Of a stretch of 33,624 bases of DNA, positions 1-33,624 are shown in pieces. Numbering within the stretch: the stretch's first letter is position 1; every line of letters starts with the position of its first letter. Source of the stretch: an uncultured archaeon (GTDB lineage Archaea; Iainarchaeota; Iainarchaeia; Iainarchaeales; 1-14-0-10-31-34); assembly GCA_964442255.1 (NCBI GenBank), contig CAYTYC010000013.1, positions 1-33,624 on the forward strand, written 5' to 3'. The notes beneath the pieces were generated by a model that was not told the origin of the DNA, did not search any database, and worked only from the letters and a program-made list of their open reading frames with translations. Made by a program: the position numbers and the translations under genes.

Positions 1-80
1 TATTGTAGAAAGTGACTGGCAACCATGGTATTGTAGAAAGTGACTGGCAACCATGGTATTGTAGAAAGTGACTGGCAACC
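1..80. repeat. Perfect 28-bp tandem repeat (TATTGTAGAAAGTGACTGGCAACCATGG, about 2.9 copies, truncated by window start)
   Basis: Copies at 1-28, 29-56 and 57-80 with no spacers. Confidence 0.9.
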
Positions 81-138
81 AGTTTCTTTTGGTATTGCCT
101 GATTATTAACTGGTGTTGCGTTATAAATTTTTTGCCCC

Positions 139-411
139 TTGTTTTATCTGGTGCTTGTACGCTGGAGTCTGCACGCAAAGCACAGGTTTGCGGAGAGGGC
201 GGTCAACCTGGGGCTCAACTACTGTGAACTGGAGCTTGCCGTAAAGAAGCAAGAGTTCAGGATTAAGGAGGGAAAAAACAAGTTCAAGGCGGTTTTCAGG
301 ATCAGGGATTCAATTCTGGCTGCGGTGAAGATTGAAACACGGGAGTTTATCAATGTCTTGACGCTTTGGGAGGCAAGCGAAAAGGAGCCTGAAAAATGGA
401 GAAAGAAATAA
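139..411 (+). CDS. Putative type II toxin, RelE-like/DUF4258-type
   Basis: 90 aa basic protein with SLHAKHRFAER and C-terminal INVLTLW; overlaps the downstream Zn-ribbon/AbrB gene; TTG start uncertain. Confidence 0.6.
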   Translation: MFYLVLVRWSLHAKHRFAERAVNLGLNYCELELAVKKQEFRIKEGKNKFKAVFRIRDSILAAVKIETREFINVLTLWEASEKEPEKWRKK

Positions 412-726
412 AGTGCCATTTGTGCAACGGCAAAGCGAAACTGCATTTTGAGGACCTGAGTCTGGACCAGGGACGGATAATCATTAAAGGCTCCCCTCAC
501 TACAAATGTTCCAAATGCAGGGAAGGGTTTGCAACCGGCGGGCAGATGCAGGAATTAAGCGGGCAGATTAACACGAAGTTTGTGTTCCAGAGGCCGATAA
601 TCAATGCCGGCCGAAGCCTTGCCATAACCCTTCCGGCAGACCTTGTCCGGTTTTATGGCCTAAAAAAAGGGGAAAAAAATAAAGATAATCCCTGAAAACA
701 GGCATGCCTTAAAGATAAAGGTGGGC
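396..726 (+). pseudogene. Zn-ribbon (YgiT/MqsA-like) plus AbrB-domain antitoxin, frameshifted near the C-terminus
   Basis: CHLC..CSKC, then GRSLAITLPADLVRFYGLKKGE. The ORF stops at 695, but removing one A from the A7 run at 673-679 gives KIKIIPENRHALKIKV, matching the paralog's EITLIPEKGSIKIV. Confidence 0.7.
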
Positions 727-815
727 TGGAATCCATGGCTTGTTGCTGTTTCGGCAACCCTTAATGGCGAGAAATCATCGCCCTTTAATACTTTTTTCCG
801 TTAAAGTGTTAATGT

Positions 816-1880
816 ATGCTTTCGCTTTCTGAACTGCAGTTTGCAAAGAACTATCCTTTCACGCCTTCCGCAGCCAAGGCTGTAAAGGAATCGGCTTCCT
901 CTTTGGAGGGCTTAAGTTTTGAGGTTTTGCAGAGGGCAAAGTTTTCGTTGAAGAAGGCCGCGGAAGGAAAAGACTATTCCATGGAAAGGCTGGGCTCAAA
1001 CAGGGAACTGCTTTTGAATGAAGTTTTGGCTTTTCCTGCAGCGAAAATCCTTTTATCCATTTACAATGACCCCCGGCTTTACGGAAAATTTGCCTTCATG
1101 CACTCCAAAAACTGCTTTAAGCGCCTTGAATCAAATTCCTTTGAACTGGAGAAGATTGCAGAAGAGCTTTCAGTGAAATTCACCCGTGAAGGGGAAAATT
1201 TTTCCGTTCCCCTTTTGGAATACGTTTCCCTTAATTTCAGGGAGGATTTCATGAAGCTTGTGAACAGGCAGGCGGAAAAAGGAAAAGTTTTTTTGACGAA
1301 AACCGATTTTGCGCGCGTCCTTTCCGCGGCTGCAAGCAAAAAGATTTTTGATTCCCTTCCCGTGCAGACAAAAGGCTTTCCGAAGAATTTCCGGGAGGCG
1401 GCAAAAGAATTAAGGGAAGAGCTGAGGAACGCGGACTCCGCAAAGTCGTTTTCCGCAGTGCACGGAAAGCCGGCTTCCGAGCTTTTCCCCCCTTGCTTTG
1501 ACCGCCTGTACAAAAGCGCTTTGGACGGAAAAAAGCTTTCCCATCTGGAGAGATTCAACCTTGCGACCTTTCTAACTGCGGTTAATTTTTCGCATTCCGC
1601 TTTAATGGATTTGTTCAGGAAAATGCCCAACTACAAGGAAAAAACCGCTTCCTACCACCTTAAAAGAATCCGCGGTTCTGGTGAAAAACAGGCTTATTCC
1701 CCGGCAAGCTGCGCGAAAATGAGGCAGTACAGGCTCTGCTTTCCCGATGAACTGTGCAGGAACGTTAGGCATCCTTTGCAGTATTACAAGGCGAAACGGA
1801 AAACAGGCTCTCCCGAAAAATTTGGCCAAAAAAATGCGAAAACCCCTGTGGGCAAAAAAATAAATAGCCCGGTGCCCTAA
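816..1880 (+). CDS. priL: DNA primase large subunit
   Basis: N-terminal YPF, KLVNR, Fe-S domain FPPC...H.ERF...SC..M...LC...LC..VRHPLQYY. Confidence 0.93.
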   Translation: MLSLSELQFAKNYPFTPSAAKAVKESASSLEGLSFEVLQRAKFSLKKAAEGKDYSMERLGSNRELLLNEVLAFPAAKILLSIYNDPRLYGKFAFMHSKNCFKRLESNSFELEKIAEELSVKFTREGENFSVPLLEYVSLNFREDFMKLVNRQAEKGKVFLTKTDFARVLSAAASKKIFDSLPVQTKGFPKNFREAAKELREELRNADSAKSFSAVHGKPASELFPPCFDRLYKSALDGKKLSHLERFNLATFLTAVNFSHSALMDLFRKMPNYKEKTASYHLKRIRGSGEKQAYSPASCAKMRQYRLCFPDELCRNVRHPLQYYKAKRKTGSPEKFGQKNAKTPVGKKINSPVP

Positions 1881-1896
1881 TTTTTGTGGTGCAATA

Positions 1897-2103
1897 ATGG
1901 CGGACTTTTACGTTTTGTTCATTTTCCTTGTAATCCAGTTTGTAATCTACATTTACCTGTTTAAGTGGAGCGCGCAGTGGGCGTACGGAATCAGGGCAAC
2001 AGCAGGGCAGGCCCTTTTGCAGTGGATTGTTTTTGTGGTTGTGTCCATTGTAATGGGCTTCCTCTTTTTGATGTTCACGGGGCTGCTGGACTATTACATT
2101 TGA
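1897..2103 (+). CDS. Small membrane protein, two predicted TM helices
   Basis: 68 aa, two hydrophobic stretches, GTGGTG upstream. Confidence 0.65.
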   Translation: MADFYVLFIFLVIQFVIYIYLFKWSAQWAYGIRATAGQALLQWIVFVVVSIVMGFLFLMFTGLLDYYI

Positions 2104-2188
2104 TTTTCATGGCTGAAAAAAAAGAAAAGGCCGGGTTTATCCTGCGGTTTTCCGGGCGCAGGGGAAGGGCAGGGGACTAGGGGGTGCT

Positions 2189-2299
2189 GCACGTGTCCAT
2201 CCGTTTGGGAGGGAAGGGTGAAAAATGGCTGAAGGAAAGCTTACTGAAGCTTCAAATGTGAAGCACGTGTCCATCCGTTTGGGAGGGAAGGGTGAAAAA
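2189..2299. repeat. 37-bp perfect direct repeat flanking a unique 37-bp insert
   Basis: GCACGTGTCCATCCGTTTGGGAGGGAAGGGTGAAAAA at 2189-2225 and 2263-2299. Confidence 0.92.
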
Positions 2300-2567
2300 G
2301 GGTAAAGCGAAGTTTTTTTCCGGGATTTCCTTTAACTTANNNNNNNNNNNNNNNNNNNNNNNNNNNNNNNNNNNNNNNNNNNNNNNNNNNNNNNNNNNNN
2401 NNNNNNNNNNNNNNNNNNNNNNNNNNNNNNNNNNNNNNNATCAGCCAGTTTTTCACGTGGAAGGGTGAAAAAGGGTAAAGCGAAGTTTTTTTCCGGGATT
2501 TCCTTTAACTTAATCAGCCAGTTTTTCACGTGGAAGGGTGAAAAAGGGTAAAGCGAAGTTTTTTTCC
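2286..2567. repeat. 36-bp direct repeat plus 37-bp insert (73-bp period), spanning a scaffold gap
   Basis: GGAAGGGTGAAAAAGGGTAAAGCGAAGTTTTTTTCC at 2286-2321, 2459-2494 and 2532-2567; insert at 2495-2531, with the same insert split 18+19 bp around the N gap. Confidence 0.85.
2340..2439. other. Scaffold gap (100 N)
   Basis: N run. Confidence 1.
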
Positions 2568-2994
2568 CTTCAGCCGAAATAGAGGAATACCTTGACTCAG
2601 GCCCCCATAAAAACCGTAAAAGCTGGATAGGGTTTGCGAGTCTGCAAACCCGCCCCAAAAAAAAAGCGCATTGACTTTACGCATTCTTTCCCGGGATTCG
2701 AGCAAATCGGTCTGGGAAGGCGTGGGCTTGCGCGGGTGGCGGATTCTGCGGTTTTTTCAAGGGTGGAAAAGCTTTACCCGGGTTACAGCATACAGCCTGT
2801 TATGTCCTCCGGTGAAATGCGTGAATTGCACAGGGGTCAGGGAATAAGGGACTGTGAATTGATTCCTGTTCAGGAATTTGCGTGCAGGAAAAGGGATTAC
2901 GCAAGGGCAATGTTCAAAAAGCACCCGCCGAAGAGAAAATGATTTTTTTTTTCCCACAAAACCCATAAAAGGCTTTTTCCGGAAAGCTTTTTTC

Positions 2995-4206
2995 ATGCAG
3001 CCCGACTATTTCCTGAAAACGGCTTTCCGCGAGTTTTACCGCCATAATCCCGTGAATTCTGTGCCGGGCATTGGGCAAAGGGAATTCGGCTATGGCATTT
3101 TCGGCCACAAAATCCTTCAGCGCCACCTTGCTTTCAGGGACGCGAAAGAATTCAATGAATTTCTGGTGAAAGAAGCCCCGCTCTATGTTTCGGCAAGCGC
3201 GGCTTACTACGAGTTCCCGGAAAGAAAGCCCATGGAAGCAAAAAACCGGCTTAAGTCGGACATAGTGTATGAGTTTGACTCCGATGATTTGCGCATAGAC
3301 TGCCAAAATGAACATGACTCCTGGGAATGCAGGTGCGGAAAAAAAGGGAAAGGAATCGTGGAAAGATGCAGCGAGTGCGGGGAAAGGGTGGAGGTAAAGG
3401 AATGGCCTTGCGAAAACTGTTTGGAGGAAGTCAAAAAGCAGATGTTTTCATTGATTGAGCTGGTGAAGGGGGATTTCGGTTTGGAGGAGGGATTAAGCGT
3501 AAACTTTTCGGGCTCGAAGGGCTTTCACCTTCACCTCCGCTCAAAGGAAATTCAGTCCTTAACCAATAACGCAAGAATAGAGCTCCTGGATTATCTTACC
3601 TTGAATGAACTGAACACCGAATTCATTGGGTTCGGGAAACAAAAGAGGCTGCTTTCCCCAAAGCAGGGGGAAGTGAAGGGTTGGGGGAAAAGAATTCTGG
3701 AAGAAATGCAGAAAATAGTCGGGAGGGGGGACGCAAAAGAGCTGGTGAAAAAAAGCGCTGTCGGGCACAAAACCGCGGAAGAAATCGTGAAAAAAAGGGA
3801 TGAAATCCTTGAGGCGCTGGAAAAAGGCGAAAGGCTGCAGTCCTTTCCAAAGGCAGAAAAATTTTGGTCATCCCTTCTTGAATCAATTGTGGAGCAGTTG
3901 ATCCTGAAAATTGACCGCCAGACTTCGGTTGACGCGAGCAAAATCCTCCGTGTTCCGGATTCCCTGCACGGGGGCACGGGGTTCAAGGCAAGCTCAATTC
4001 CACTGGACAAGCTGGGGGAATTTAAGGCGTTCAGCGAAGCAATAGCTTTTTCAAACAATCCAGTGAAGGTATTTATCAGGGAGGCCCCCAAAGTCAGGTT
4101 CGGGGGGCAAAGCTTTGGGCCTTTCTTGCAAGAGGAAGCCGAGCTTCCGGAATACGCGGCGGTTTACTTCGCCGCAAAAGGTGCTGCAAATGGAGTTGTC
4201 CTATGA
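2995..4206 (+). CDS. priS: DNA primase small (catalytic) subunit
   Basis: QREFG, YEFDSDD, FSGSKGFHLH, IDRQTSVDASKILRVPDSLHGGTG; ATG at 2995 chosen over the upstream GTG. Confidence 0.95.
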   Translation: MQPDYFLKTAFREFYRHNPVNSVPGIGQREFGYGIFGHKILQRHLAFRDAKEFNEFLVKEAPLYVSASAAYYEFPERKPMEAKNRLKSDIVYEFDSDDLRIDCQNEHDSWECRCGKKGKGIVERCSECGERVEVKEWPCENCLEEVKKQMFSLIELVKGDFGLEEGLSVNFSGSKGFHLHLRSKEIQSLTNNARIELLDYLTLNELNTEFIGFGKQKRLLSPKQGEVKGWGKRILEEMQKIVGRGDAKELVKKSAVGHKTAEEIVKKRDEILEALEKGERLQSFPKAEKFWSSLLESIVEQLILKIDRQTSVDASKILRVPDSLHGGTGFKASSIPLDKLGEFKAFSEAIAFSNNPVKVFIREAPKVRFGGQSFGPFLQEEAELPEYAAVYFAAKGAANGVVL

Positions 4207-4753
4207 TGAAATAAGGCGGATTCACCGCCTGGAGAAGTCTTCACCAAAACTCACGGAGGTAGAAGAAGACTTTATGGATTCATTGGGCGAATTCCTTCAG
4301 GGCGAAAAAAAAACTTACATGGATTCATTGAAGGACATGAGCTTTTCCAAGGCAAAAAGCTACGGCAACATAAAAAAAATGCTTGAAGAAATTTTTTCAA
4401 TGCGCCAGAGAAAAATTTTGAACCTTGCCCTCATTTCCTCCAGCACAGGGGAAGCGGAGTATTCGAACATGACTTTCCAGGAAAAAGAACTGTGCAGGGA
4501 GCTTGTGAAGGTTTTATCCAGGCACAATGATTCCGCGAAAAAAGTTTTTGACGAATCCGCGCAGGCAAAAACTCCGGCGGGGCAGGAAAAAGATTTAAAT
4601 AAGGTTTCCATGCGCATTCTAAGGGAAGTTCCCTCTTTTGTCGGAACGGATATGAAGGAATACGGCCCTTTCAAGGAAAACCAAACCGTTGAACTTCCGC
4701 CCAAAATCGCGAAACTCTTTGTTTCAAGGAACCTTGGAAAAATGCAGGAGTGA
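4190..4753 (+). CDS. GINS15-family replication protein
   Basis: RQRKILNLA, NMTFQEKELC, C-terminal B domain ILREVPSFVGTDMKEYGPF; conserved position after priS. Confidence 0.88.
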   Translation: MELSYDEIRRIHRLEKSSPKLTEVEEDFMDSLGEFLQGEKKTYMDSLKDMSFSKAKSYGNIKKMLEEIFSMRQRKILNLALISSSTGEAEYSNMTFQEKELCRELVKVLSRHNDSAKKVFDESAQAKTPAGQEKDLNKVSMRILREVPSFVGTDMKEYGPFKENQTVELPPKIAKLFVSRNLGKMQE

Positions 4754-4759
4754 AATTTA

Positions 4760-4957
4760 ATGGCAAAGCCCGAAGTACCGCAGCCCAAAACAAAGTTCAT
4801 TAAGGTAAAGTGCGGAAGCTGCGGAAACGAGCAGGCAATTTTTTCTTCGCCCTCCTCAAAACCCAGGTGCCTTGTGTGCGAACAGGTTTTGGCTTTTCCC
4901 AAAGCCTCAAAGCTCGGGCTTGCGGGAAAAACAAAGGTTGTTAAGGAACTCCAGTAG
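4760..4957 (+). CDS. rps27e: 30S ribosomal protein S27e
   Basis: KFIKVKCGSCGNEQAIFS...CLVC. Confidence 0.95.
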   Translation: MAKPEVPQPKTKFIKVKCGSCGNEQAIFSSPSSKPRCLVCEQVLAFPKASKLGLAGKTKVVKELQ

Positions 4958-5740
4958 GTGAAAATTTTTTTGTCTGAAGAACTGCCGGAAACAGGGGAAG
5001 TGGTTGTATGCAGGGTAAATCGCGTGCTGAATTACGGGGTTTTCGTTGACCTGCTGGAGTACGGGGACGCGAAAGGGTTTGTGCACGTTTCCCAGGTTGC
5101 CTCAAGGTGGGTAAAAAACATCAGAAACTATGTGAAGGAAAACCAGCTCCGCGCGGCAAAAGTTTTGTACATTGACTCCCAAAAAAACCAGATTGACCTG
5201 AGTTTGGTCAAGGTTTCCCCAAGGGAACAAAGAAAAAAAATAGAGGAATACAAGCAATTCAAGCGCGCCCAAAAACTGGTTGAAGTGCTGGCGAAAAACG
5301 CCAAAAAGCCTTTTGACTCGGTTTGGGAGGGGATTGCCGAGCCCTTAATCCATGAATTCGGCTCCCTTCACGCAGGCTTCCAGGAAATTGCTTTAAGGAA
5401 AGGGGAGGCAGCAAAAGGAATCAGCCCTGAATGGCAGAAGCCATTGGTTGAGCTTGTCTCCAAAAGCATTTCCGTGCCAAAGAAAACGGTTAAAGGAACC
5501 CTTGTGCTTTCCTCCACCGCCCCGGACGGGGTGGAGGCAATCAAAAAGGCATTGAATGAAGCGAAAAAAGCCGCAAAGGGAAAGGAAACGGAAATATATT
5601 ACGAGGGCTCAAGCAATTATGTTTTAAAGGTTAGCTCGCACGATTTTAAGAGCGCGGAAAAACAGCTGAAAGAGCTCGGGGAAAAGGCGCTGGAAAGCAT
5701 TAAAGCTTCGGGCGGAACAGGGGAATTCAAAACCAAGTAA
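4958..5740 (+). CDS. eif2a: Translation initiation factor aIF-2 alpha
   Basis: S1 domain LPETGEVV...YGVFVDLLEY...HVSQVASRWVKNIR, then IDLSL and PDGVEAIK; true start may be the TTG at about 4970. Confidence 0.95.
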   Translation: MKIFLSEELPETGEVVVCRVNRVLNYGVFVDLLEYGDAKGFVHVSQVASRWVKNIRNYVKENQLRAAKVLYIDSQKNQIDLSLVKVSPREQRKKIEEYKQFKRAQKLVEVLAKNAKKPFDSVWEGIAEPLIHEFGSLHAGFQEIALRKGEAAKGISPEWQKPLVELVSKSISVPKKTVKGTLVLSSTAPDGVEAIKKALNEAKKAAKGKETEIYYEGSSNYVLKVSSHDFKSAEKQLKELGEKALESIKASGGTGEFKTK

Positions 5741-5775
5741 ACTTTTTGGGAAAAGTTTAAGCCGGGGTTGATTAA

Positions 5776-6549
5776 ATGGCGACAAAAATAACTGTTTTAA
5801 AGGATGTTAAGCTCAAGAACGGCGTGATGTTCACCGGCCTCCCCGGAATAGGTTTGGTGGGAAAAATTGCGGTGGACTACCTGCTCAAGCAGTTGAAGGC
5901 GGAAAAGGTTGCCGAAATTTTTTCTGACTCTTTTCCGCCGAGCGTGCACACAAAGGACTCCCTGTTGGAGCTCATAAAGGACGAAATCTATCACGTTAGC
6001 TCAAACGGAAACGACTTCCTGTTTTTGGCCGGCCCTGTCCAGCCCGCATTGGACGTGAGAAGCCCTTCCGCTTTGGAGCACTATGAGTTCGCGGAAAAGA
6101 TTGCGGAAAAAGCCAAGGAACTCGGTGTAAAGGAAATTTACACTCTCGCGGGAATCAACATAGGGGAAAGGAGAATGAACGCGGAACCCAAAATCGTTGT
6201 GGCGGCTTCCTCAAAAAAAACCCTGGAGGAATTCAGGAAACTCGGCGTCAAATTAAGCAAGGACGAGGGCTTAATCAGCGGCGCGGCGGGGCTGATTTTG
6301 GGGGTTGGAAAAGAAAAAGGCATGGGTGGGGCGTGCCTTATGGGCGAAACGAACGCGCGCCTCATTTACGGCGACCACGGCTCCGCGAAAAAGCTGATTG
6401 AATTGCTTGCAAAAAAGTACGGCTTCAAAATCCACATGGGCGAAATTGAAAAGGAGTCCAGGGAAATCGAGAAAGCCTTCACCCAGTTAAGCAAGAGCCT
6501 GGAAGAACAGGAAGACACGGGTGAAGGCGGGTTAAGCTACGTCCGGTAA
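5776..6549 (+). CDS. PAC2-family proteasome assembly chaperone
   Basis: GLPGIGLVGKIAVDYL, ISGAAGLILG, CLMGET, C-terminal SYVR. Confidence 0.9.
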   Translation: MATKITVLKDVKLKNGVMFTGLPGIGLVGKIAVDYLLKQLKAEKVAEIFSDSFPPSVHTKDSLLELIKDEIYHVSSNGNDFLFLAGPVQPALDVRSPSALEHYEFAEKIAEKAKELGVKEIYTLAGINIGERRMNAEPKIVVAASSKKTLEEFRKLGVKLSKDEGLISGAAGLILGVGKEKGMGGACLMGETNARLIYGDHGSAKKLIELLAKKYGFKIHMGEIEKESREIEKAFTQLSKSLEEQEDTGEGGLSYVR

Positions 6550-6551
6550 AC

Positions 6552-6843
6552 ATGCATTCAAAGGCTTTTGTTTTTCTGTTTGCTGTTTTTTTGGGGATTT
6601 TTTATTTTTTGGCTGTGTCCACGGCAGGGGGAAAGCGGAAACAACCCAAAAGCTATGCGGTGAAATAACCTCCGAAAATGTGCAGCAGGTTTCAGCATCG
6701 TTTACATAATAGAAAAAACTGTCGGCGAAGGAAGCAGGCTTGCATACCGCGATTCCCCGGGAAACTTCATTGAAAACGCTGTAAGGGAGGATGTGCCGGT
6801 TTTTGAAACCAAAACAGGAAAAAAAAACTCACTGCATTACTGA
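6552..6843 (+). pseudogene. Frameshifted lipoprotein remnant
   Basis: Signal-like MHSKAFVFLFAVFLGIF; a lipobox FGC appears only after a shift in the T runs (about 6598-6610); further shifted fragments follow. Confidence 0.5.
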
Positions 6844-6913
6844 AAGAGGAAAAGGGTGCCCTGAATACTGAATAGGGCTGTTTGGAAATAGGCTGCTGCA
6901 CTAAAATTGACTG

Positions 6914-8188
6914 CTAAAATTCTTTCAGCGTTTTTTGCCCTGTGCAGGGCTCCCTGCATTCCAGCTGTTTTCCTAACTCAATTTTTTTTCTTTCAAACTC
7001 TTGCTTTGAGTCGCACAAAACCGGCTTTCCGTAGTTTCCCCCCCCGCCGGGAATGAACAAAACCCAGTCATTGCGGAAGGCGGAGATTTTTTCCGCAGTC
7101 CCTTTTTCGACTTCCCTTAACTCTTCAATTGGCGTGTCGGCCAAAACATTTATTTCGTTTCCGAACCTTTCCACAAACCGTTTCCACTGCTCCTGCACCT
7201 TCACCCCGAAAACGTTTTTCGCTCCCAAAGAAAGCTGAATTATTTCCGCCAAGGGAAGAAGGTGAAGGTACTTCGGCCTGAAGCCCGGGTGTTCGCCTTC
7301 ACCCGAATCCGCGAGCTCCAGAATCCTGTCCTTCACCCCTTTTTTAACGCTTCTTCCGCATTCCGGGCACTTCCATTTTCCTGTTTCAGCCTCCTTTAAT
7401 GAAAGCTTTGCGTAGCAGTTGGAGCACGCACTGCAATGGTATTTTCCTTCTCTCGGGTCAAGCCCCGCATTCAGCGTAACCAGCGCATCATTCTTCCTCT
7501 CCAAAGCCTTCTTAAGGGAATTGAAGTCCGGTTTCCGGAGATTTATTCGTGTGAATTCCCTTCCAATCCGGTAAGGCCACGGCGAATGCGCGTCAGAGTT
7601 TGTGAGAAAACTCAGCGAATGGTTTTCCTTCATCAAATCCGCCAAATCCGTGTCCGCACTTAACCCAAGCTCAATGAAGTGGATGTTTTTTGCCTGTGCC
7701 CCGTAGCAGTCCCTTATTGAATTGAAGTGCGCGTAGATTCCAAAGTAAGGGGTGAACGCATGCGCTGCGCCAATCATTCCGCCTGCGTCCAAAACAATTT
7801 CCGCAATTTTCTCCGCATTCAGCCTGATTCTCGGCCTGCCTCCCCCAAAGGAGTCCATGTCATTGGAGTAAGGCTTCAGTTTTTGCTTGGCTTCCTGCAC
7901 TGAATTGAAATCCGGAAAGAAAAGAATGTGGTGAACTGAGTCAATGCACTGCACTTCCGTCTGCAGAATGAAGGGCATGGAATGCTGTTTGGATAGGAAA
8001 ACCCCGTTGCTTTCCTCCAGGGTTTCCTTTGCATGCAAAATCCATTCTTTGTGGAGAATGTCCGCGGTTCCCAGCAAATTCAACCCCTTTAATCTGGATT
8101 GCTCCGCGATTGTGGAAATAAGCATTTTCTTGCTTACCCCCCCGCTGTAAGGGCTGTGGAAATGCAAATCGCAGTTGAATTCCTTCAT
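6914..8188 (-). CDS. PHP-family phosphoesterase with Zn ribbon (TIGR00375/COG1379-like)
   Basis: DLHFHSPYS, GTAD, AHAFTP, ELGLSAD, NSDAHS, GKYH, CxxC..CxxC, PGGGGNYG. Confidence 0.9.
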   Translation of the reverse strand: MKEFNCDLHFHSPYSGGVSKKMLISTIAEQSRLKGLNLLGTADILHKEWILHAKETLEESNGVFLSKQHSMPFILQTEVQCIDSVHHILFFPDFNSVQEAKQKLKPYSNDMDSFGGGRPRIRLNAEKIAEIVLDAGGMIGAAHAFTPYFGIYAHFNSIRDCYGAQAKNIHFIELGLSADTDLADLMKENHSLSFLTNSDAHSPWPYRIGREFTRINLRKPDFNSLKKALERKNDALVTLNAGLDPREGKYHCSACSNCYAKLSLKEAETGKWKCPECGRSVKKGVKDRILELADSGEGEHPGFRPKYLHLLPLAEIIQLSLGAKNVFGVKVQEQWKRFVERFGNEINVLADTPIEELREVEKGTAEKISAFRNDWVLFIPGGGGNYGKPVLCDSKQEFERKKIELGKQLECREPCTGQKTLKEF

Positions 8189-8232
8189 TTTCTCCCCAAG
8201 TATTAATTAAAAAAGATTGCACATTCTTTAAA

Positions 8233-10668
8233 TTGGTTTCCATGGAATCAAAAGCCCCAATTCCAAAGGAAGCGCGCTTTTGGGAAACGAGAAAAGAGGG
8301 CGTTGTGCAGTGCCGCGCGTGCAACCGCAACTGCGTGATTGCGGAAGGCAAAACAGGGCTGTGCAGGGTGAGGAAAAACTTTGAAGGAAAGCTCCGTTCC
8401 CTGGTTTACGGAAAAACACTTACCCTGGATGTTGACCCGGTTGAAAAAAAGCCCTTGTTTCATTTCCGTCCGGGAACGGAGTGCCTGGGAATCAGCACAT
8501 ATGGCTGCAATTTTTTCTGCCAGCATTGCTTTACTCCCGAGACTTTAATCGCAACTGACGCGGGGGTCAAAAAAATTAAAGATTTATACAAAAGCGGAAA
8601 AAATGAAAGAAAGGAACTGAATTTTAATGTTAAGGATTTAAATTATCCAAAAGCCATTACGCATAATGGAACAGATTCTGAAATAATTCATTCATTTGAA
8701 CACCACTATGACGGAGTTTTACTGTCTATTAAGCCACATTACACGCCAGGCTTTAGTTGTACCCCGAATCATGAATTGTTTGTGTGCAGGGCCCGTTCTT
8801 CTAACAAAATTGAAAAAATTAGGGCAGATGAACTTTGCCTTTTCGATTATCTGGTGATTCCAAAGATTAAGATTAACCCTGAAAATAAACAAGTATTGGA
8901 CACAAAGAAAATTCTCAGCGCAATTGAAGTGAAGACTAATAAAGCAAAAAGAAAAGTTATCCCTAACTTCGATAAAATAGTGAGATTGAAAGAGGAAGGT
9001 TGTTCTTCAAGAGAAATAGGGAAAATAATTGGTTTGCATCCCGCCTATGTGGGAACTTTCTTTTCTAAACTGAAAAAGAAGGGAAAAGATCACGTGTTTC
9101 ATGACACTATTTTAATAAAAGAAAAAGGAAACAGGGTTAAATTCAAGAACGAGAAAGGCAAAGGGGTTCCGAAGAAACTTCCCATCAACGGAGATTTTGC
9201 TTCTTTGCTGGGTTATTATTGTTCTGAAGGCTGCATAATAAAACATAAGAAAAGACAAAACAGTTATGGCCTGGTTTTCAGTTTTGGCGCTCATGAGCCG
9301 CATTTGGTCAATAGCGTCAAAAATTTGGGGAAAAAAATCTTTGGACTAGAGCCCAAATGTAAACGCACAAAGTCTAACACAGTTAACATTCATTTTTATA
9401 GCTCTTCTGTGGCCCTGCTTTTTAAGCTTCTTTGCGGGGCGGGGGCCCGCAATAAGGTTGTGCCTGAAATCCTGTTTCGTGCAGACAAAAGGGTTGTCAG
9501 CAGTTTTCTTTACGCTTACGCTGAAGGCGACGGATGGGTTGGGGATGGCAGCCACCCGATAAGCATTAACACAGTTTCAAAAGAGCTTGCCGTTGGAGTT
9601 TATTGCCTTTTTTTGAGGACAGGGTTTATCCCAAGTTTCCATGAATGGAACCCAAAGCCCAAAAAAAGGATTCAAGGGAGAGAAATTAATCAGTCACCGC
9701 TTTTTTATGTGAAACTTTATTCAGAGAGATCCCGGAAAAGGTTTGCTTTGGGAACCAGAAAATCCGGGCACGATATTAAGGGCAAAAGCAGAGTGCTGTA
9801 TATCGAGAAAAAAAACCATTACCTTATCCCGGTCCACAGAATATCAAAACAGGATTACACAGGCCTTGTTTACAATTTGGAGGTTTTAGGTGACCACTCA
9901 TACCTGGCAAATTTTGTTGCGGCGGGAAACTGCCAGAACTTCCATTTAAGCCAGGAATGGGGGGAAGGTGCGCTGGAAAAAGTGCCTTTCCGTTCTCCGG
10001 AGGAGGTGGTGCAGGCGGCGATTTCCGCGGGCGTTCCCGGGATTGCGTACACTTACACCGAACCCACTGTTTTCATTGAATACTGCCTGGACATAATGGA
10101 AGAAGCGAAGGAAAAAGGCCTGTACAACGTGTTTGTAAGCAACGGCTACATGGGAAAAGGGGTTGTAAAAGAGGCATCCAAAACACTGGACGCAATAAAC
10201 ATTGACCTAAAGGGAAACGGCCTCTTCTATAACGAGGTTTGCGGGCAGGCGAAAAAGGAAAAGGTTTTGGAAAACATTAAGGCTTTCCACGAAAGGGGGG
10301 TGCATGTGGAGGTCACAAACCTCATCATCCCCGGCTTCAACGACAATGAAAAGGATTTCAGGGAAACCGCGGAATTCATTGCCTCTTTGGATAAGGAAAT
10401 GCCCCTGCATTTTTCGCGTTTCCACCCCCAATTCAAAATGGATTGCCTTTCCCCCACGCCCGAGGAAAAACTTTTGAAGGCAAAGGAGATTGCGGAGAAA
10501 ACAGGGCTGAAATTCGTTTACCTCGGAAATTTGGGGAAAGACGGGGACACCCGCTGCAAAAAGTGCGGTGCCATTCTGGTTAAAAGAAGCGGGTTTTCAG
10601 CTGAGGTTGAAGGGCTGGGGAAAGGAAAATGCGTTAAATGCGGGGCGGAAAACAATTTTATCGCCTGA
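8233..10668 (+). CDS. amrS: AmmeMemoRadiSam system radical SAM enzyme (PFL-activase-like), intein-containing
   Basis: CRACNRNC, GLCRVR, DPVEKKPLFHFRPG, GCNFFCQH|CQN, IAYTYTEP, NIDLKG, EVTNLIIPG, PLHFSRFHP; start could be 8242. Confidence 0.9.
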   Translation: MVSMESKAPIPKEARFWETRKEGVVQCRACNRNCVIAEGKTGLCRVRKNFEGKLRSLVYGKTLTLDVDPVEKKPLFHFRPGTECLGISTYGCNFFCQHCFTPETLIATDAGVKKIKDLYKSGKNERKELNFNVKDLNYPKAITHNGTDSEIIHSFEHHYDGVLLSIKPHYTPGFSCTPNHELFVCRARSSNKIEKIRADELCLFDYLVIPKIKINPENKQVLDTKKILSAIEVKTNKAKRKVIPNFDKIVRLKEEGCSSREIGKIIGLHPAYVGTFFSKLKKKGKDHVFHDTILIKEKGNRVKFKNEKGKGVPKKLPINGDFASLLGYYCSEGCIIKHKKRQNSYGLVFSFGAHEPHLVNSVKNLGKKIFGLEPKCKRTKSNTVNIHFYSSSVALLFKLLCGAGARNKVVPEILFRADKRVVSSFLYAYAEGDGWVGDGSHPISINTVSKELAVGVYCLFLRTGFIPSFHEWNPKPKKRIQGREINQSPLFYVKLYSERSRKRFALGTRKSGHDIKGKSRVLYIEKKNHYLIPVHRISKQDYTGLVYNLEVLGDHSYLANFVAAGNCQNFHLSQEWGEGALEKVPFRSPEEVVQAAISAGVPGIAYTYTEPTVFIEYCLDIMEEAKEKGLYNVFVSNGYMGKGVVKEASKTLDAINIDLKGNGLFYNEVCGQAKKEKVLENIKAFHERGVHVEVTNLIIPGFNDNEKDFRETAEFIASLDKEMPLHFSRFHPQFKMDCLSPTPEEKLLKAKEIAEKTGLKFVYLGNLGKDGDTRCKKCGAILVKRSGFSAEVEGLGKGKCVKCGAENNFIA
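8527..9930 (+). mobile_element. Intein with LAGLIDADG homing endonuclease (468 aa)
   Basis: Block A CFTPETLI, block B CTPNHELF, endonuclease motifs LLGYYCSEG and FLYAYAEGDG, block F/G VYNLEV..DHSYLAN..AGN followed by Cys+1. Confidence 0.95.
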
Positions 10669-10683
10669 TTTCCGGAAACCGCC

Positions 10684-10794
10684 ACTACAGAAACAAAATC
10701 ACACAAGCCCAAGGAAATGCGTTGTCGGGGTTTTGTTGATTGTTTTTTATTTTATGAACTACAGAAACAAAATCACACAAGCCCAAGGAAATGC
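10684..10794. repeat. 37-bp perfect direct repeat flanking a unique 37-bp insert
   Basis: ACTACAGAAACAAAATCACACAAGCCCAAGGAAATGC at 10684-10720 and 10758-10794. Confidence 0.92.
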
Positions 10795-11066
10795 AGTACA
10801 AGCATTGAGCCAATTCCAGCCAGGCCAAACACCACGGTTACGGCGAGTGTCGGGAGAAGGGGCAAGCTGATTTTGAACACAAAGTAAATTATTGCCAGAA
10901 CCACGAGCCCGGCAATGGTGTTTGCAATTATTTTCTTTAAGAAAAAGAATATTGCAACCGCGCCCACGATAAGCAGTATTCCTATGACCAGCACCGCGGG
11001 CTCTCCCGCAAAGGATGCCGCGGCGCCAAGCCCTTCCTTTAGGGTTTCAGTGCCCGCTTCAGCCAT
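10773..11066 (-). CDS. Small membrane protein, BofA-like
   Basis: Three hydrophobic segments, KIIANTIAGLVVL...FGLAGIG; start codon lies inside the 15-bp tandem repeat, so the start is uncertain. Confidence 0.7.
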   Translation of the reverse strand: MAEAGTETLKEGLGAAASFAGEPAVLVIGILLIVGAVAIFFFLKKIIANTIAGLVVLAIIYFVFKISLPLLPTLAVTVVFGLAGIGSMLVLHFLGLV

Positions 11067-11268
11067 TCCGTTCAAAGCCATTCCGTTCAAAGCCATTCCG
11101 TTCAAAGCCATTCCNNNNNNNNNNNNNNNNNNNNNNNNNNNNNNNNNNNNNNNNNNNNNNNNNNNNNNNNNNNNNNNNNNNNNNNNNNNNNNNNNNNNNN
11201 NNNNNNNNNNNNNNAGCCATTCCGTTCAAAGCCATTCCGTTCAAAGCCATTCCGTTCAAAGCCATTCC
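11061..11268. repeat. Perfect 15-bp tandem repeat AGCCATTCCGTTCAA flanking a scaffold gap
   Basis: About 3.6 copies on each side of the N run at 11115-11214. Confidence 0.9.
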
Positions 11269-11330
11269 TTATTAACTGGAACTGAATCCATTAAAAGGCT
11301 TTTTTAAACCTTTTTTTTCCCACTTTTACT

Positions 11331-11966
11331 ATGCCTTTCACGGAGGAACAGAAAAAGATTTCCGCGGCGCTTGTGCACGGCCCCAGAACCGCGGAAGAAC
11401 TGGCGGAAGAAACAGGGTTCACTGAATCAAGGGTGGCTGAAGAGATAAAAGGGCTTATGAAACTGAAGCTTGTTTCAAGGGAAGGCTTTCCCACCAAATA
11501 CAAGATAGACGAGAAAATCTGGGGGCAGGCCAAGAAAAGAAGGGAGGTAGCGGAAGCAGACAAGTTCCGCCTCCGGATGAACATCATAATTGAGGTGCAG
11601 GGAATTCTGGAGGAATTGGTGGAAAAACAGCTGAAGGACATTGAAAAAAAGCTTAAGGAAGACGAGGACTTCACAGTGTACAGCGCGGAGCACGCGGAAA
11701 CAGCAAAGGAAGGCGAGCATTTCACGGGGTTCATTGAAGTCGGCTTGACTGTAAGGGATTTCCGCGCGCTAATGAAGCTTGTGTTCAGCTTTGGCCCCTC
11801 TTCCATAGAGGTGTTGAGGCCCGAAAAAATCGATCTCACTTTGGATGAACTGCAGGACGGATTGCATTACGCCTCCGAAATGGTCCAATCCTATGTGGCT
11901 TACATCGCGCAAAAGCTTACCCGCGATGAGCTGGAGCGGTTCAACAAGGACCTTTTCGGAAGATAA
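11331..11966 (+). CDS. Hypothetical protein with N-terminal winged HTH
   Basis: GPRTAEELAEETG..ESRVAEEIKGLMKLKLV; C-terminal FGPSSIEVLRP domain. Confidence 0.75.
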   Translation: MPFTEEQKKISAALVHGPRTAEELAEETGFTESRVAEEIKGLMKLKLVSREGFPTKYKIDEKIWGQAKKRREVAEADKFRLRMNIIIEVQGILEELVEKQLKDIEKKLKEDEDFTVYSAEHAETAKEGEHFTGFIEVGLTVRDFRALMKLVFSFGPSSIEVLRPEKIDLTLDELQDGLHYASEMVQSYVAYIAQKLTRDELERFNKDLFGR

Positions 11967-12097
11967 AATTTTTTTGTTATCCCTTATTGACGAAAAAAAC
12001 AACCGAACCCTTACGCTTATTGCCGAAGAGGAGTTCTGCAAAGAGCCGAAGTTTGCCCTTTAAACGGCTAACGGAGGCAAATCCTTTCCCTGCTTAC

Positions 12098-12113
12098 CGA
12101 AACCTATATAAAG
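12098..12113 (+). promoter_or_regulatory. BRE-TATA promoter of the S-layer gene
   Basis: CGAAACC-TATATAAAG about 25 bp upstream of a structured leader. Confidence 0.65.
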
Positions 12114-12133
12114 GCTAATAAGCAACCAATTAT

Positions 12134-12186
12134 AGAGCCTTTTTATGTCTTTAAACTTTCAGATGGTTTTAGGCGTTTAGGGCTCT
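12134..12186 (+). promoter_or_regulatory. Long 5'-UTR stem-loop
   Basis: Nested pairing AGAGCC/GGCTCT, ATGTCT/AGGCGT and AAACT/GGTTT; RBS GAGGTGA at 12204-12210. Confidence 0.6.
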
Positions 12187-12218
12187 GATTATTGTTAGAT
12201 TGTGAGGTGAAACAAAAC

Positions 12219-15077
12219 ATGAGAGGTTTTAATGTAAAAAAACTCGTTGCAATCGGAACAGGTGCCGCATTAATTGGTGCTGCATTGGCTCCGGTTTCAG
12301 CGGACTTAAGGGACGACCTCTATGACAGCGACGGAACTCCTTTGGCAAGCGTTGTCGTTGGTGACAATGCTGCCTTGAGCGACGTTGTGTGGGCAGGCAA
12401 CATTGCAGCGGCAATGGCCTTGAAGGCCTATTCCGAGGTGCCGATTACTTGCGACACCGCGGGAAGCTGCGCAACAGACGCCACCCCGACACTGACAGGA
12501 TTAATGGTTGACTTGTCTGTCGGCGGAACCACCACTGTCACAGGGGGAAAAACATTTTTCGAAGACATGAATTCAATGGCAGGCACATCAGGGAGAGAAA
12601 CAAACTTCTATAACCAGCAGGTAACCTACTCAAGCATTCCGAACCTGTACTACGACAGCGCAAGGTCACAGACATACAACGGCAGCTCCTACACTACAAC
12701 CCTCCAGGAAAAGCTCAACTTTACTTTGAATGCCGAATTTGATGACGTAGTGAAAAAGGCATTGGCCGGAAGAATTGGAATCGGCCAATTGAAGTATGTG
12801 TTGAGCCTGGGAACAGGAGTGAATGCCTGGGAATCAGGCACAGGAACAGTGAAGTACACGGATGACGGAAACGACAATGTAAGGTTTCCGATTTTCGGCG
12901 ACGACTACCTGCTGAAAACAGCCGACTACAACTCAGGATCCCTTGAGCTGGTTAAGTCTGCGGCGGAGAAAACCTACGTTGACGGCGACAAAATTGAGGG
13001 CCTTGAAGGAAAGGACGGAGAAACCTATTACATTGAAGTGGGCGGAGGAGTGACCATCAGCAACGTGACAAACGTTGAGCTGAGGCTTTACAAGGAAGAC
13101 GGCACACTTGTCCAGTCCGACAACTTTCCGGCGGGAGACGTAAGGTTTTACAGCGACGACACGGGGGAAGAGATTCTCCAGACGCTGGTCAACATCAGCG
13201 CAATCGGAACCACAACAACGGCGGACGCGACAGTTTACAAGCCCCAGATTCTGGTGGGCTCAAACAGGCTGTTGATCTACCACGACAAGGGTTTCAGTCT
13301 TGAAAACGGAGGATACGACTCAAGCCTGACAGACAGCGAATACCTGTACAAAGCGAAAATCAACTGGGGCGACGCTGCAACCTCTGCGACAGGAAAAATC
13401 AAGGACATAAACATTGAGAACTGGACCCAGCTCAGCTTCACAGGCCAGGATGCTTTGGGAGTGGGCGATGAAGCCACTTTCCCGGGGGAAATGGGCTCAG
13501 TGAAGTTTTTGGGTTTCCAGCTGCCGGGATTTGAATCCGTAAGCAAGACAGAGAGAACCACCGTGGTAACCTTTGGAAATGAGAAACTGACTTACAAGGA
13601 TTCCACATTTGAATCATCACACGAGCTTCCATTCTACAGGGATTCTCTTTCACTGTCAAATCTGGGCAGTTGGTCAACATCAATTGACGGAAAGAATTTT
13701 TGGGCGATGGTGAATACAGCGGACAAAAATGTTTTGTCATACAATTCGGCGACATCAGCGTACGACGGATCCCACACTTGCATCGGAGACAACAACTACA
13801 TCAACGGCCAGGTGGTAGAAGTTTCAAGCGTTGACGCAACCAATGCCACAATCAACGGAACAGCAACATACGAAGTCGGCGACACAGTGGACATCAACGG
13901 ACAGCATTTCACATACTCCGGGCATGATACCACTGTTGGCTGTGTCTACCTGACAGCGGACGGAAACGTTACCCTTCGAAAGGATTCAGCAACAGGCGAA
14001 TTGGTAATGGATTACTTCTACGCTGATGAAAACGTCGGGACCGGCATGCCCATTGGCTTTGAAGGAACAAGTGATGTGAGCACAGACTACATCGTTATGG
14101 TGGACGAAAGTGCATCTTCCGGGACTTCAGACACTGCAAATATCTGGCTATTCCTTGACGGCCAGAACATAGCCACACAGTACGGCAAACTCATTACAGT
14201 GAAGGGAACAGACACCGCCGAAGACGGATCAGGCACAATGGACGTAAACTACTACGAACCAAATCATCCATCACTTCCGTCATCACTTAACGGAAGCCCA
14301 AATTATACTGCAAACGACCACAAGATAGCCTGGTTTGAACTGGATGAAGACGAGGGCGGAGTAAAAGACTTCAACGTCTTCATTGACACAGTGTACGACT
14401 TCGGAAACCTTGTGAACCCGGACGACACCACACTAAGCAACTACCCCTATGAAGTCCATTACCTGCCTAACGGAACCGACGACAGCGTAACCTGGTCGTT
14501 GAGCGAAAGCCCAACCAAGGGCTACCCGACCGAAGGATACTCCGATTGGGGGACAAAAGTGAGTGTCAGCGACGACATTGCTACCTTCACTTTCCCGGAA
14601 AACAGGCCTCAATTGGAAGTCCTGGTTTCAGGCACAGGAACAAGCACTGAAGTCAGCGGCGGAGAAGACTTTGAAGGCGTGGAATCCGGAGAAATAGTGA
14701 CAACCACAGACGGAACAAAAGTAACGGTGACTGACATCACCTACGTAAGCAATGTGTGCGAAGGAACTGTCGGAGGAGACATTGTCTGCAACACAGACCC
14801 TTCACTGGCGATAACGCCTGTAAGCAGGGTCGGCTACCTGGTCGGCCTGGCTTCAGAGGCGCCGCTTGGAACACGCGTTGTGGTGGGCGGATGGAAAGTC
14901 AACAGCCTGGCAAGCGGAGTCAAATTCGGTGGAGTTGACATCGAATCCGAACTCAAGGCTTCAGGCGACTTTGTTGCAGAGAAAGCCGACAACGGCGACT
15001 ACATCGTTGCGGGCTGGACTGCAAGCGACACCGTCGCAGCAGCGAAAGAATTCATTGACATGCTGGAAGCAATTTGA
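12219..15077 (+). CDS. S-layer protein
   Basis: Signal KKLVAIGTGAALIGA; S-layer N motif VVVGDNAALSDVVWAGNIAA; C motif VVVGG..VN...IVAGWTASDTVAAAKEFI; acidic and Thr-rich with many NxS/T sequons. Confidence 0.9.
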   Translation: MRGFNVKKLVAIGTGAALIGAALAPVSADLRDDLYDSDGTPLASVVVGDNAALSDVVWAGNIAAAMALKAYSEVPITCDTAGSCATDATPTLTGLMVDLSVGGTTTVTGGKTFFEDMNSMAGTSGRETNFYNQQVTYSSIPNLYYDSARSQTYNGSSYTTTLQEKLNFTLNAEFDDVVKKALAGRIGIGQLKYVLSLGTGVNAWESGTGTVKYTDDGNDNVRFPIFGDDYLLKTADYNSGSLELVKSAAEKTYVDGDKIEGLEGKDGETYYIEVGGGVTISNVTNVELRLYKEDGTLVQSDNFPAGDVRFYSDDTGEEILQTLVNISAIGTTTTADATVYKPQILVGSNRLLIYHDKGFSLENGGYDSSLTDSEYLYKAKINWGDAATSATGKIKDINIENWTQLSFTGQDALGVGDEATFPGEMGSVKFLGFQLPGFESVSKTERTTVVTFGNEKLTYKDSTFESSHELPFYRDSLSLSNLGSWSTSIDGKNFWAMVNTADKNVLSYNSATSAYDGSHTCIGDNNYINGQVVEVSSVDATNATINGTATYEVGDTVDINGQHFTYSGHDTTVGCVYLTADGNVTLRKDSATGELVMDYFYADENVGTGMPIGFEGTSDVSTDYIVMVDESASSGTSDTANIWLFLDGQNIATQYGKLITVKGTDTAEDGSGTMDVNYYEPNHPSLPSSLNGSPNYTANDHKIAWFELDEDEGGVKDFNVFIDTVYDFGNLVNPDDTTLSNYPYEVHYLPNGTDDSVTWSLSESPTKGYPTEGYSDWGTKVSVSDDIATFTFPENRPQLEVLVSGTGTSTEVSGGEDFEGVESGEIVTTTDGTKVTVTDITYVSNVCEGTVGGDIVCNTDPSLAITPVSRVGYLVGLASEAPLGTRVVVGGWKVNSLASGVKFGGVDIESELKASGDFVAEKADNGDYIVAGWTASDTVAAAKEFIDMLEAI

Positions 15078-15089
15078 TTCCGGCAAACA

Positions 15090-15130
15090 AAAAAGGTCTT
15101 TTAAAGGCCTTTTCTTCTTCTTTTTTTTTT
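15090..15130 (+). terminator. Hairpin plus T-tract terminator
   Basis: AAAAGGTC...GGCCTTTT followed by a long T run. Confidence 0.6.
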
Positions 15131-15192
15131 AATTTCCTTCCAGCCGGAGGCACGTCCCGGCAGGAATTTTTTGGCGTGAATTCCAGTGCCTC

Positions 15193-15370
15193 AAAAACTA
15201 TTTCGTGGAGCCCCGGCTGTTTTAATGGGCGAATGAATTGTTTCCGTCAGAATTGGACTGTGTTGGACTGGTTTGTGTTGTTAAGCCGGCTGTTTTAATG
15301 GGCGAATGAATTGTTTCCGTCAGGCCGTTTGCGGGAACAAAAATTCAGCGGATTTTTAACCCGCCGTAGT
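15193..15370. repeat. Dispersed ~105-bp intergenic element, copy 1 (carries a duplication+insert)
   Basis: Similar to 22377-22483, including identical CAGGCCGTTTGCGGGAACAAAAATTC. Confidence 0.8.
15213..15323. repeat. 38-bp perfect direct repeat flanking a unique 35-bp insert
   Basis: CCGGCTGTTTTAATGGGCGAATGAATTGTTTCCGTCAG at 15213-15250 and 15286-15323. Confidence 0.92.
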
Positions 15371-15430
15371 CTAAAAAAAAACCTCTGCTTTGGCTCCGCT
15401 TTTTATTGCTTTCCCACCTGAATTCTACAA

Positions 15431-16033
15431 ATGAAATGGAAGGAGATTGTGTTGGCTGTTGCGATAATAATCGCTATTGCCGCCCTGGTTTACGTGAACT
15501 TTCTTCCAAAGGAAAAAGCCTACACCTATTCGGTGCGGGAAGAGGGCGTGCTTTTTGCCTCGGATTTGGCTCCCCCCGGGGAACTGCTCCAGTTCAACGC
15601 CCAGCACAGCACCTTCATTGTTTCGCATGAATTCAGGGAAGGAACCGAAAACTTGGATGACGTGACAAACGCCTTGACCGCATTTCAGGCGGTCCTCACG
15701 GCCGCGGACAAAAAAGTTGTAACCGTTTTAAGGGAAACCGATGCGGAAGGGAACCTTTTGGGCTGCCAGACAAACAAGGGGGACAGGAAAGAAGTGTTCG
15801 AGGTTTCGGCCGAGGAGTGCAGGGAAATCCTGCGGGAAAAAGGCGTTCTGGTAAATATTTTTTCCCCTGACCCCTCACTGAAACAGCCCACGGTTGTTTT
15901 GCACAGGGAAAAAATAGATGTTTTTCCCTCTTCCGAAAACAATTCTTCCCTTTATCTTCTCATCCTTAAATCCATGTTCAGGAACACGCAGGAGGTTCTG
16001 GACGCAATCAACGCAATGGTTGCCGTAAGGTAA
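15431..16033 (+). CDS. Membrane-anchored hypothetical protein
   Basis: N-terminal TM helix followed by a soluble domain with a Cys pair. Confidence 0.75.
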   Translation: MKWKEIVLAVAIIIAIAALVYVNFLPKEKAYTYSVREEGVLFASDLAPPGELLQFNAQHSTFIVSHEFREGTENLDDVTNALTAFQAVLTAADKKVVTVLRETDAEGNLLGCQTNKGDRKEVFEVSAEECREILREKGVLVNIFSPDPSLKQPTVVLHREKIDVFPSSENNSSLYLLILKSMFRNTQEVLDAINAMVAVR

Positions 16034-22232: not shown

Positions 22233-22376
22233 GAAGAAATCTGAATGGGAAGAAATTATAAAGGCTTTCCGGAAAAAATTTTTTTCCCTATTTTTCACTC
22301 CACGACAAAAATTTTTTTTTCCCTTTCCGCAGGCGGCGGCCGCCTTTTTCCGGGCGCCTTTAAGATTTTTTTCTTT

Positions 22377-22483
22377 AAAAACCCCTTCCGGGAACCCCGC
22401 CTGTTTCAATGGGCGGATGAATCGGGGTTTTTGCAGGCCGTTTGCGGGAACAAAAATTCGGCGAATTTTTAATCCGCCGTAGT
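22377..22483. repeat. Dispersed ~105-bp intergenic element, copy 2 (uninterrupted)
   Basis: Similar to 15193-15370 minus the 73-bp duplication+insert; hairpin CCGCCTG-TTTCAA-TGGGCGG. Confidence 0.8.
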
Positions 22484-22513
22484 TTAACAGACAACGGATT
22501 TTTTTTTTTTTCC

Positions 22514-33476: not shown

Positions 33477-33624
33477 TTTTTTTCTTCCTTTTAATATTCA
33501 TTAACTGTCCAGAATTCCCCTGTCAAGTATTTTTTCCATTCCTCGTTAACCTGTTTCTGTATTTCCGCGTTTTTTTCTTCCTTTTAATATTCATTAACTG
33601 TCCAGAATTCCCCTGTCAAGTATT
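33477..33624. repeat. 93-bp-period tandem duplication of a minus-strand gene's 3' end (truncated by window end)
   Basis: TTCTTCCTTTTAATATTCATTAACTGTCCAGAATTCCCCTGTCAAGTATT occurs twice, 93 bp apart; the unit encodes NAEIQKQVNEEWKKYLTGEFWTVNEY*. Confidence 0.8.

Follow-up and report, generated by a model that had tools for sequence, protein, structure and literature searches.

Spacer-sized inserts within repeat-length duplications in the genome of a DPANN archaeon, possibly produced by off-target integration of the Cas1-Cas2 type

Analysis of the window, which comprises the entire contig C13 (33,624 bp) of an archaeal (DPANN) bin of 1,277,402 bp in 51 contigs (93.8% complete, 0.23% contamination), revealed a 37-bp duplication enclosing a 37-nt insert. 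By analogy with its sister units, this structure (Unit A) is very probably a genuine insertion with target duplication. Units of this type were found at a total of about 27 loci in 1.28 Mb, which corresponds to approximately one scar per 50 kb. Off-target integration by a Cas1-Cas2-type spacer integrase ('neo-CRISPR') is regarded as the best explanation for these units and is favoured here with modest confidence.

Both the sequence itself and a repeat search showed that the 37-mer GCACGTGTCCATCCGTTTGGGAGGGAAGGGTGAAAAA is present in two identical copies at 2189-2225 and 2263-2299, with the 37-nt insert I_A, TGGCTGAAGGAAAGCTTACTGAAGCTTCAAATGTGAA, located between them at 2226-2262. A whole-genome pattern search allowing up to 3 mismatches returned the 37-mer at two genomic places only (2189 and 2263) and I_A at a single place. 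The 37-bp duplication and 37-bp insert of the original prediction were thus exact in coordinates and lengths. An exact 37-mer recurring 74 nt apart within 33.6 kb cannot have originated by chance. The proposal that the structure arose by insertion with target duplication gains support by analogy with the sister units, for which an empty-site allele, a paralogous empty site and five inserts copied from the same genome could be found. A search of the insert against viral and host contigs had also been suggested; within the bin it located I_A at its own place only, and in viral contigs it gave no match. Neither the complete 37-mer of I_A nor its 25-nt core had an exact match in the metagenome or viral contig collections, blastn against phage and plasmid collections returned no match, and I_A was not found in 195 other genomes of the order (up to 3 mismatches). 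The core sequences of the inserts in Units B and C likewise had no match in viral contigs. The coordinates of all features are listed in Table 1.

Table 1. Coordinates of the units and neighbouring genes in the window
Feature	Position	Strand	Evidence or remark
priL, DNA primase large subunit	816-1880	+	PF04104, 4.6e-22
Conserved 68-aa membrane-protein ORF, upstream of Unit A	1897-2103	+	tblastx to L007 (3e-11) and L005 (1.6e-7)
Unit A, copy 1 of the duplicated 37-bp target (R_A), ends ...GTGAAAAA	2189-2225		X1 and X2 contigs both stop at 2218, base 30 of the copy
Unit A, insert I_A, 37 nt	2226-2262		Unique in the genome
Unit A, copy 2 of R_A	2263-2299		Identical to copy 1
Unit A2, first copy of the 36-bp duplicated target R2	2286-2321		Shares its initial 14 nt with the end of R_A copy 2
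Start of A2 insert S, 18 nt, up to the scaffold gap	2322-2339		18/18 identical to 2495-2512
100-N scaffold gap within the A2 tandem array	2340-2439		Edges combined give exactly one S
Final 19 nt of an S copy	2440-2458		Sequence
R2 copy	2459-2494		Sequence and repeat search
A2 insert S, 37 nt	2495-2531		Identical over its first 35 nt to C4:64430-64396 (minus), in a T2SSE-type ATPase gene
Last R2 copy	2532-2567		X1 contig restarts at 2538, 30 nt before the copy end
priS, DNA primase small subunit	2995-4206	+	PF01896, 6e-12
Unit B, 37-bp duplication, 37-nt insert, 37 bp	10684-10794		Empty-site allele in run X2
Unit C, 38-bp duplication, 35-nt insert, 38 bp, within a multi-copy element	15213-15323		Local-repeat listing
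Paralogue of the Unit C locus without insertion	22397-22495		73-nt alignment gap; aligned region 22335-22510

Unit A is intergenic, with the 68-aa ORF on one side and priS on the other. When the units were removed in silico, the small ORF alone within the 678-nt spacer region showed tblastx matches (loci of 11 relatives). The frame reopened by the removal of Unit A extends over 52 codons from stop to stop, contains no ATG or TTG and one late GTG, and has no homologue; for these reasons no decayed gene is recognized at this position. Two further parts of the original prediction, the location of the unit inside a decayed gene and the rejoining of a host reading frame upon its removal, could therefore not be supported: the small ORF is the only conserved frame, and the period, at 74, is not divisible by 3. 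Relatives (loci L005-L013) keep priL, the small membrane-protein ORF and priS in this order, with PriL tblastn matches in 8 of 11 loci. From the small ORF to priS, the spacer inferred from coordinates is about 890 nt here versus about 110 nt in the relative G003, and the spacer preceding priS is several-fold longer in the present genome than in relatives. A search for loci related via PriS returned no relative. PriS is present in 30 of the 30 relatives searched at an amino acid identity of 51% or less (nearest about 50%), which makes an empty-site comparison of Unit A at the nucleotide level impossible. Searches of the window for tRNAs and Rfam families gave no match.

A second unit, A2 (2286-2567), overlaps the second copy of Unit A by 14 nt. 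From this overlap of R_A and R2 it follows that two events struck overlapping targets. In A2, R2 occurs in at least three copies (at 2286, 2459 and 2532) and S at least two times, with the same insert each time. Given at least three R2 copies but one insert sequence, A2 is not a CRISPR array with different spacers. Unit A consists of two repeat copies and one insert, where a CRISPR array has at least three copies of the same repeat with different spacers. For Unit B, a contig of run X2 joins 10683 to 10758 and skips 74 nt, and thus represents the empty site (depth 4.61, side 82, both 37); the unit is polymorphic between samples. The multi-copy element carrying Unit C is about 100 nt long and was found at 15321-15382, at 22434-22495 and also at C14:~24300. 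Its copies in the window are 89% identical, it contains CCGCCTGTTTCAATGGGCGG-like hairpins, and its summed contig depth is 3-4 times that of its neighbours in X1 and X2. Copies of the element were struck twice by units with a 73-nt period (C13:15213 and C14:24347).

Local repeats in the whole bin were listed by two scripts, one for exact matches and one with mismatches allowed. Among the 104 rows of at least 24 nt, periods of 72, 73 and 74 accounted for 8, 10 and 10 rows, respectively. All other periods had at most 4 rows, except period 78 with 6 rows, 5 of which came from two tandem arrays (C23:3936-4376 and C3:~13,500). Eighteen single repeat-insert-repeat units were obtained from the 1.28-Mb bin, with duplications of 33-39 bp, inserts of 33-39 nt and periods of 71-76; three of them are located in the window (2189, 10684 and 15213). 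The two copies are exact in 12 units and differ by 1-2 mismatches in the other 6, which are considered older events on account of these differences, so that the set covers a range of ages. An apparent trade-off between short duplications and long inserts vanished once mismatches were allowed. Nine further loci with periods of 72-74, including A2, are multi-copy or situated at gap edges, and we infer that they are expanded units. The duplicated sequences are mutually unrelated, and the units therefore represent neither one mobile element nor one CRISPR array. Each locus has a different repeat and 1-3 inserts, and six loci carry the same insert two or more times in tandem. Periods divisible by 3 were found in 6 of the 18 single units, which is the chance level and shows no in-frame bias. 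The locus C11:3646-3902, within a T2SSF-type gene, contains four repeat copies with one insert present twice and another once, its second target being shifted by 7 nt; it is regarded as a nascent array.

Comparison of 22 inserts revealed no common sequence and no shared ends, and their GC fraction ranged from 0.28 to 0.66. Five of them are exact 35-38-nt copies of other loci in the same genome, namely of genes for carbonic anhydrase, adenylosuccinate synthetase (PurA), a tyrosine recombinase, the T2SSE ATPase and a Yip1-like protein. The remaining 17, including I_A, had no match in the bin. A hairpin was considered as a general feature of the inserts and rejected, with fold z values from -2.5 to +1.2 and mostly near 0; that of I_A is weak (dG -4.4, z -2.5). 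No common adjacent motif was found beside the five self protospacers, five being a small number. Adaptation without Cas4 may lack a protospacer-adjacent motif. Three of the five self sources (8668-8702, 55055-55092 and 62838-62872) are located on the 71-kb contig C3, which makes up 5.6% of the genome, and another unit is present at C3:55940, about 850 nt from one of these sources. This contig may be a hot spot for fragment capture.

Target-site preference was analyzed by an orientation-free EM motif search over the 22 targets. The resulting motif had a total of 9.93 bits, versus 7.19 +/- 0.53 (maximum 8.63) in 100 random-site control sets. It reads GCC|CTTnC at one border (...GAAAG|GGC on the other strand), with G at -3 in 15, C at -2 in 14, C at -1 in 12, C at +1 in 11, T at +3 in 14 and G or C at +7 in 20 of the targets. 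Duplications ending in T[GT]AAA(N0-2) were found in 6 of 22 cases, Unit A included, against 0.74 expected in a post hoc test. Judged by its letters, the target border ...GAAAG|GGC seems to resemble the 3' end of many CRISPR repeats; in this comparison, made post hoc, 6 of the 22 targets end like ...TGAAAG.

According to the favoured explanation, a spacer-sized fragment of 37 nt would be joined into non-CRISPR DNA by attacks on the two strands about 37 bp apart, after which gap repair would duplicate the 37 bp lying between the attack points. The same process would have struck about 27 genomic places, preferably targets with GCC|CTTnC at one border, and would have been supplied with fragments of the cell's own genes and of as yet unassigned, probably foreign, DNA. 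The new direct repeats could then expand to a repeat-insert-repeat-insert-repeat structure, as may have occurred at A2, or collapse to the empty site, and units that were struck again would give nested hot spots such as A with A2. Since integration alone gives no tandem identical inserts, a further event has to be assumed, in which the new repeats underwent slippage or unequal exchange. The insertion of arbitrary fragments of about 36 nt at preferred sites, with a duplication fixed at about 37 bp, is the signature of a Cas1-Cas2 integrase. A duplication of CRISPR-repeat length around one spacer-length insert was found in Unit A (37/37/37) and throughout the 18 units, and the captured inserts are heterogeneous as in neo-CRISPR loci (22 unrelated sequences, of which five are self copies).

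The enzyme itself is only deduced, because its genes are absent from the bin, which is the chief weakness of this explanation; the genes may be unbinned, lost or supplied in trans. Searches of the 93.8%-complete bin for Cas1 (PF01867) and Cas2 (PF09827) gave no hit, the Cas1 protein of G002, a genome of the same family, had no match in the bin at E <= 1, and no RAMP protein, Cas6 or canonical CRISPR array was found there. The only match to 'Cas4' in the bin was a stand-alone 258-aa ORF at C6:8556-9332 (L023:1363-2139, minus), which scored 24.5 bits, just above the Pfam cut-off, and which appears to encode a NucS-like nuclease. Among the 150 other genomes of the order, Cas1 is encoded by 11, one of which belongs to the 8 of the family. 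CRISPR arrays with 37-nt repeats, 35-44-nt spacers and periods of 73-81 were found in G002 of the same family and in G026 and G075 of the same order, and the array of G034 has 30-nt repeats; the unit lengths were compared with these arrays of relatives only, that is with repeats of 37 nt (G002, G026, G075) or 30 nt (G034). In G002, no array is present within 15 kb of Cas1 on the same contig, the array being located on another contig, and 6 of the 9 loci of relatives that were scanned contained no array. No ectopic units were found in the sampled parts of G002 (369,314 nt), G026 and G023 (400,000 nt each), versus 18 in 1.28 Mb here. As the sampled stretches of the two Cas1-positive relatives (369 kb and 400 kb) are without units, carrying Cas1 alone does not give the pattern, which in this comparison is specific to the present genome.

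Independently built contigs from the runs X1 (possibly the source) and X2 (another sample) of one study were placed on positions 1-16000; run X3 contained next to none of this stretch. The X1 and X2 contigs stop 30 nt into the first copies (2218, 10713 and 15242) and restart 30 nt short of where the last copies end (2538 and 10765). Breaks at 30 nt are presumably the behaviour of a graph of 31-letter words at a duplicated segment; the run index likewise uses 31-letter words. No joints skipping 74 nt were present at Unit A or Unit C among the joints listed for X1 and X2. Most of the 100-N gaps in the bin are located in or beside short tandem repeats, and at least five of them have exact 55-nt overlaps on either side (period 155); the real length of such gaps may be zero. 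The gap at 11115-11214 lies in the 15-nt tandem repeat AGCCATTCCGTTCAA, within a minus-strand membrane-protein frame. Both window ends are tandem-repetitive (1-84, 28 nt in three copies; 33477-33624, a 93-nt period plus a 55-nt exact repeat), and it is probably there that the assembly broke. A GC-rich 81-nt unit with internal hairpins is repeated in tandem at 28626-28789 with 77% identity.

That the duplication and insert are an assembly or library artefact absent from cells is considered very improbable. The bin was indeed scaffolded from short reads and contains 100-N gaps, exact 55-nt overlaps beside them and tandem repeats at contig ends, and an assembly gap leaves the copy number of A2 ambiguous. 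However, the exact length of the gap-flanking overlaps indicates that the assembly word was probably 55, and the 37-nt repeat, being shorter than this word, must have been spanned by reads; a repeat of word length, as expected for an artefact, was seen only at the gaps. The second, independent contig set breaks at the exact unit borders in two samples. Together with the empty allele of Unit B in X2, the paralogue of Unit C and the six units with 1-2 mismatches between copies, these contig breaks rule out a plain assembly artefact. The motif shared by the targets and the lack of units in the sampled stretches of three relatives also argue against an artefact.

Three biological alternatives to integration by Cas1-Cas2 were weighed. 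An undescribed ruler-type integrase other than Cas1-Cas2, encoded by the archaeon or by a mobile element, might insert fragments of about 36 nt at a staggered cut of 37 bp; this is considered unlikely, although the 93.8%-complete bin lacks cas genes and CRISPR arrays and the self protospacers have no adjacent motif in common, which would agree with it. Besides Cas1-Cas2, no enzyme is known to insert arbitrary stretches of about 36 nt with a long duplication of fixed length. Moreover, the ruler of 37 bp is as long as the CRISPR repeat in the array of the family itself (G002), and the apparent likeness of the target border to a CRISPR repeat end points in the same direction. Exact copies of distant loci, as found for the five self inserts, could also be generated by templated insertion during replication or break repair, in which a strand switches template, copies about 36 nt, returns upstream and copies 37 nt again. 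Two of the sources share a short identity between source flank and target (5 nt at A2, an offset TTATTT at C15:14606), but such microhomology is missing at three of the five known sources. No ruler is expected from this process, yet all 18 single units stay within 33-39 bp for the duplication and 33-39 nt for the insert, and a specific target motif is present; templated insertion is accordingly judged improbable. A degenerate true CRISPR array, or a MITE-like element whose target-site duplication is long, would account for the insert-plus-duplication build, the CRISPR-like spacing and the weak hairpin of I_A. Both appear scarcely credible, since the inserts have no terminal repeats or common sequence, I_A occurs once in the genome and belongs to no multi-copy element of the MITE or transposon kind, and an array is contradicted by repeats that differ at each locus, by only 1-3 inserts per locus and by the lack of cas genes.

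Returning to integration of the Cas1-Cas2 type, the units are similar to the arrays of G002, G026 and G075 in repeat length, spacer length and period. The relatives' arrays, in contrast, consist of one repeat with many spacers and have cas1 nearby or in the same genome, whereas here a different local sequence is duplicated each time around 1-3 inserts. Insertion with direct target duplication is shared with transposons, MITEs and casposons, the last of which use a Cas1-family transposase. Such elements, however, are of defined sequence with terminal repeats and leave short duplications, unlike the unrelated 33-39-nt fragments and 37-bp duplication seen here. The target duplication of casposons is 14-15 bp. 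In E. coli, the creation of new arrays by off-target integration is attributed to Nivala, Shipman & Church 2018 (Nat Microbiol 3:310), as cited in two sources (10.1101/148544, PMC7054753). According to one of them, off-target spacer integration was seen mainly in E. coli over-expressing Cas1-Cas2, and the natural evidence is circumstantial and comes from two other species (10.1101/148544). With the E. coli neo-CRISPR loci as cited there, the present units share a spacer-length insert in a repeat-length duplication, self DNA used as spacer and repeated strikes leading to nascent arrays. They differ in being natural and free of over-expression, in a ruler of 37 instead of 28 bp, in their number (about 27 loci in 1.28 Mb), in a bin without cas1/cas2 or parental array and in identical inserts in tandem. 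For Cas1-Cas2 of P. furiosus, an in vitro study reports integration at non-CRISPR sites by paired attacks one repeat length apart, with repeat-like sequence, G/C borders and a C-rich flank (PMC6698737). Opposite-strand attacks one repeat length apart are thus common to both systems in that account, with borders CCCT|GTTA there and GCC|CTTnC here. The spacing is 30 bp there versus about 37 bp here, and the substrates there were plasmids in vitro (PMC6698737), whereas here a natural population carries the products, either fixed or polymorphic, and the enzyme is only deduced.

Several units interrupt genes. In silico removal of the unit at C4:1709 restores a frame of 431 versus 332 codons; the 332-codon piece carries a CARDB domain, and the split gene looks like one for a CARDB-domain protein. 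At C22:23378, removal restores 331 versus 225 codons. Removal also restores a long frame on C11, where a T2SSF-type pilus platform gene, which has two T2SSF domains, is split. In-frame units of 72 and 75 nt add 24-25 residues to a GT4 glycosyltransferase and a cysteinyl-tRNA synthetase. In the latter (C27:6074-7549), the 75-nt unit consists of a 37-bp duplication with one mismatch and a 38-nt copy of purA, it directly precedes the conserved ...MYTCGPTVY..., and the frame remains open over 491 aa. When draft genomes are annotated, units of this kind account for otherwise puzzling frameshifts and for short tandem arrays with 72-74-bp periods.

A natural population thus carries about one scar per 50 kb, some of them recent and polymorphic between samples. 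It is conceivable, although unlikely, that this is a CRISPR-Cas-less DPANN archaeon peppered with spacer-type insertions by an integrase that acts in trans (from a host cell, plasmid or virus) or is not Cas1, and that the nested hot spots (A with A2; C11:3646-3902) are CRISPR-like arrays at birth. If the integrase is Cas1-Cas2, the pattern measures the mutational cost of adaptation and provides both raw material for new CRISPR arrays and a natural target-site logo of an integrase with a 37-bp ruler. If the organism has no Cas1-Cas2 of its own, the footprint would point to an unknown integrase or to adaptation proteins acting in trans in a symbiont.
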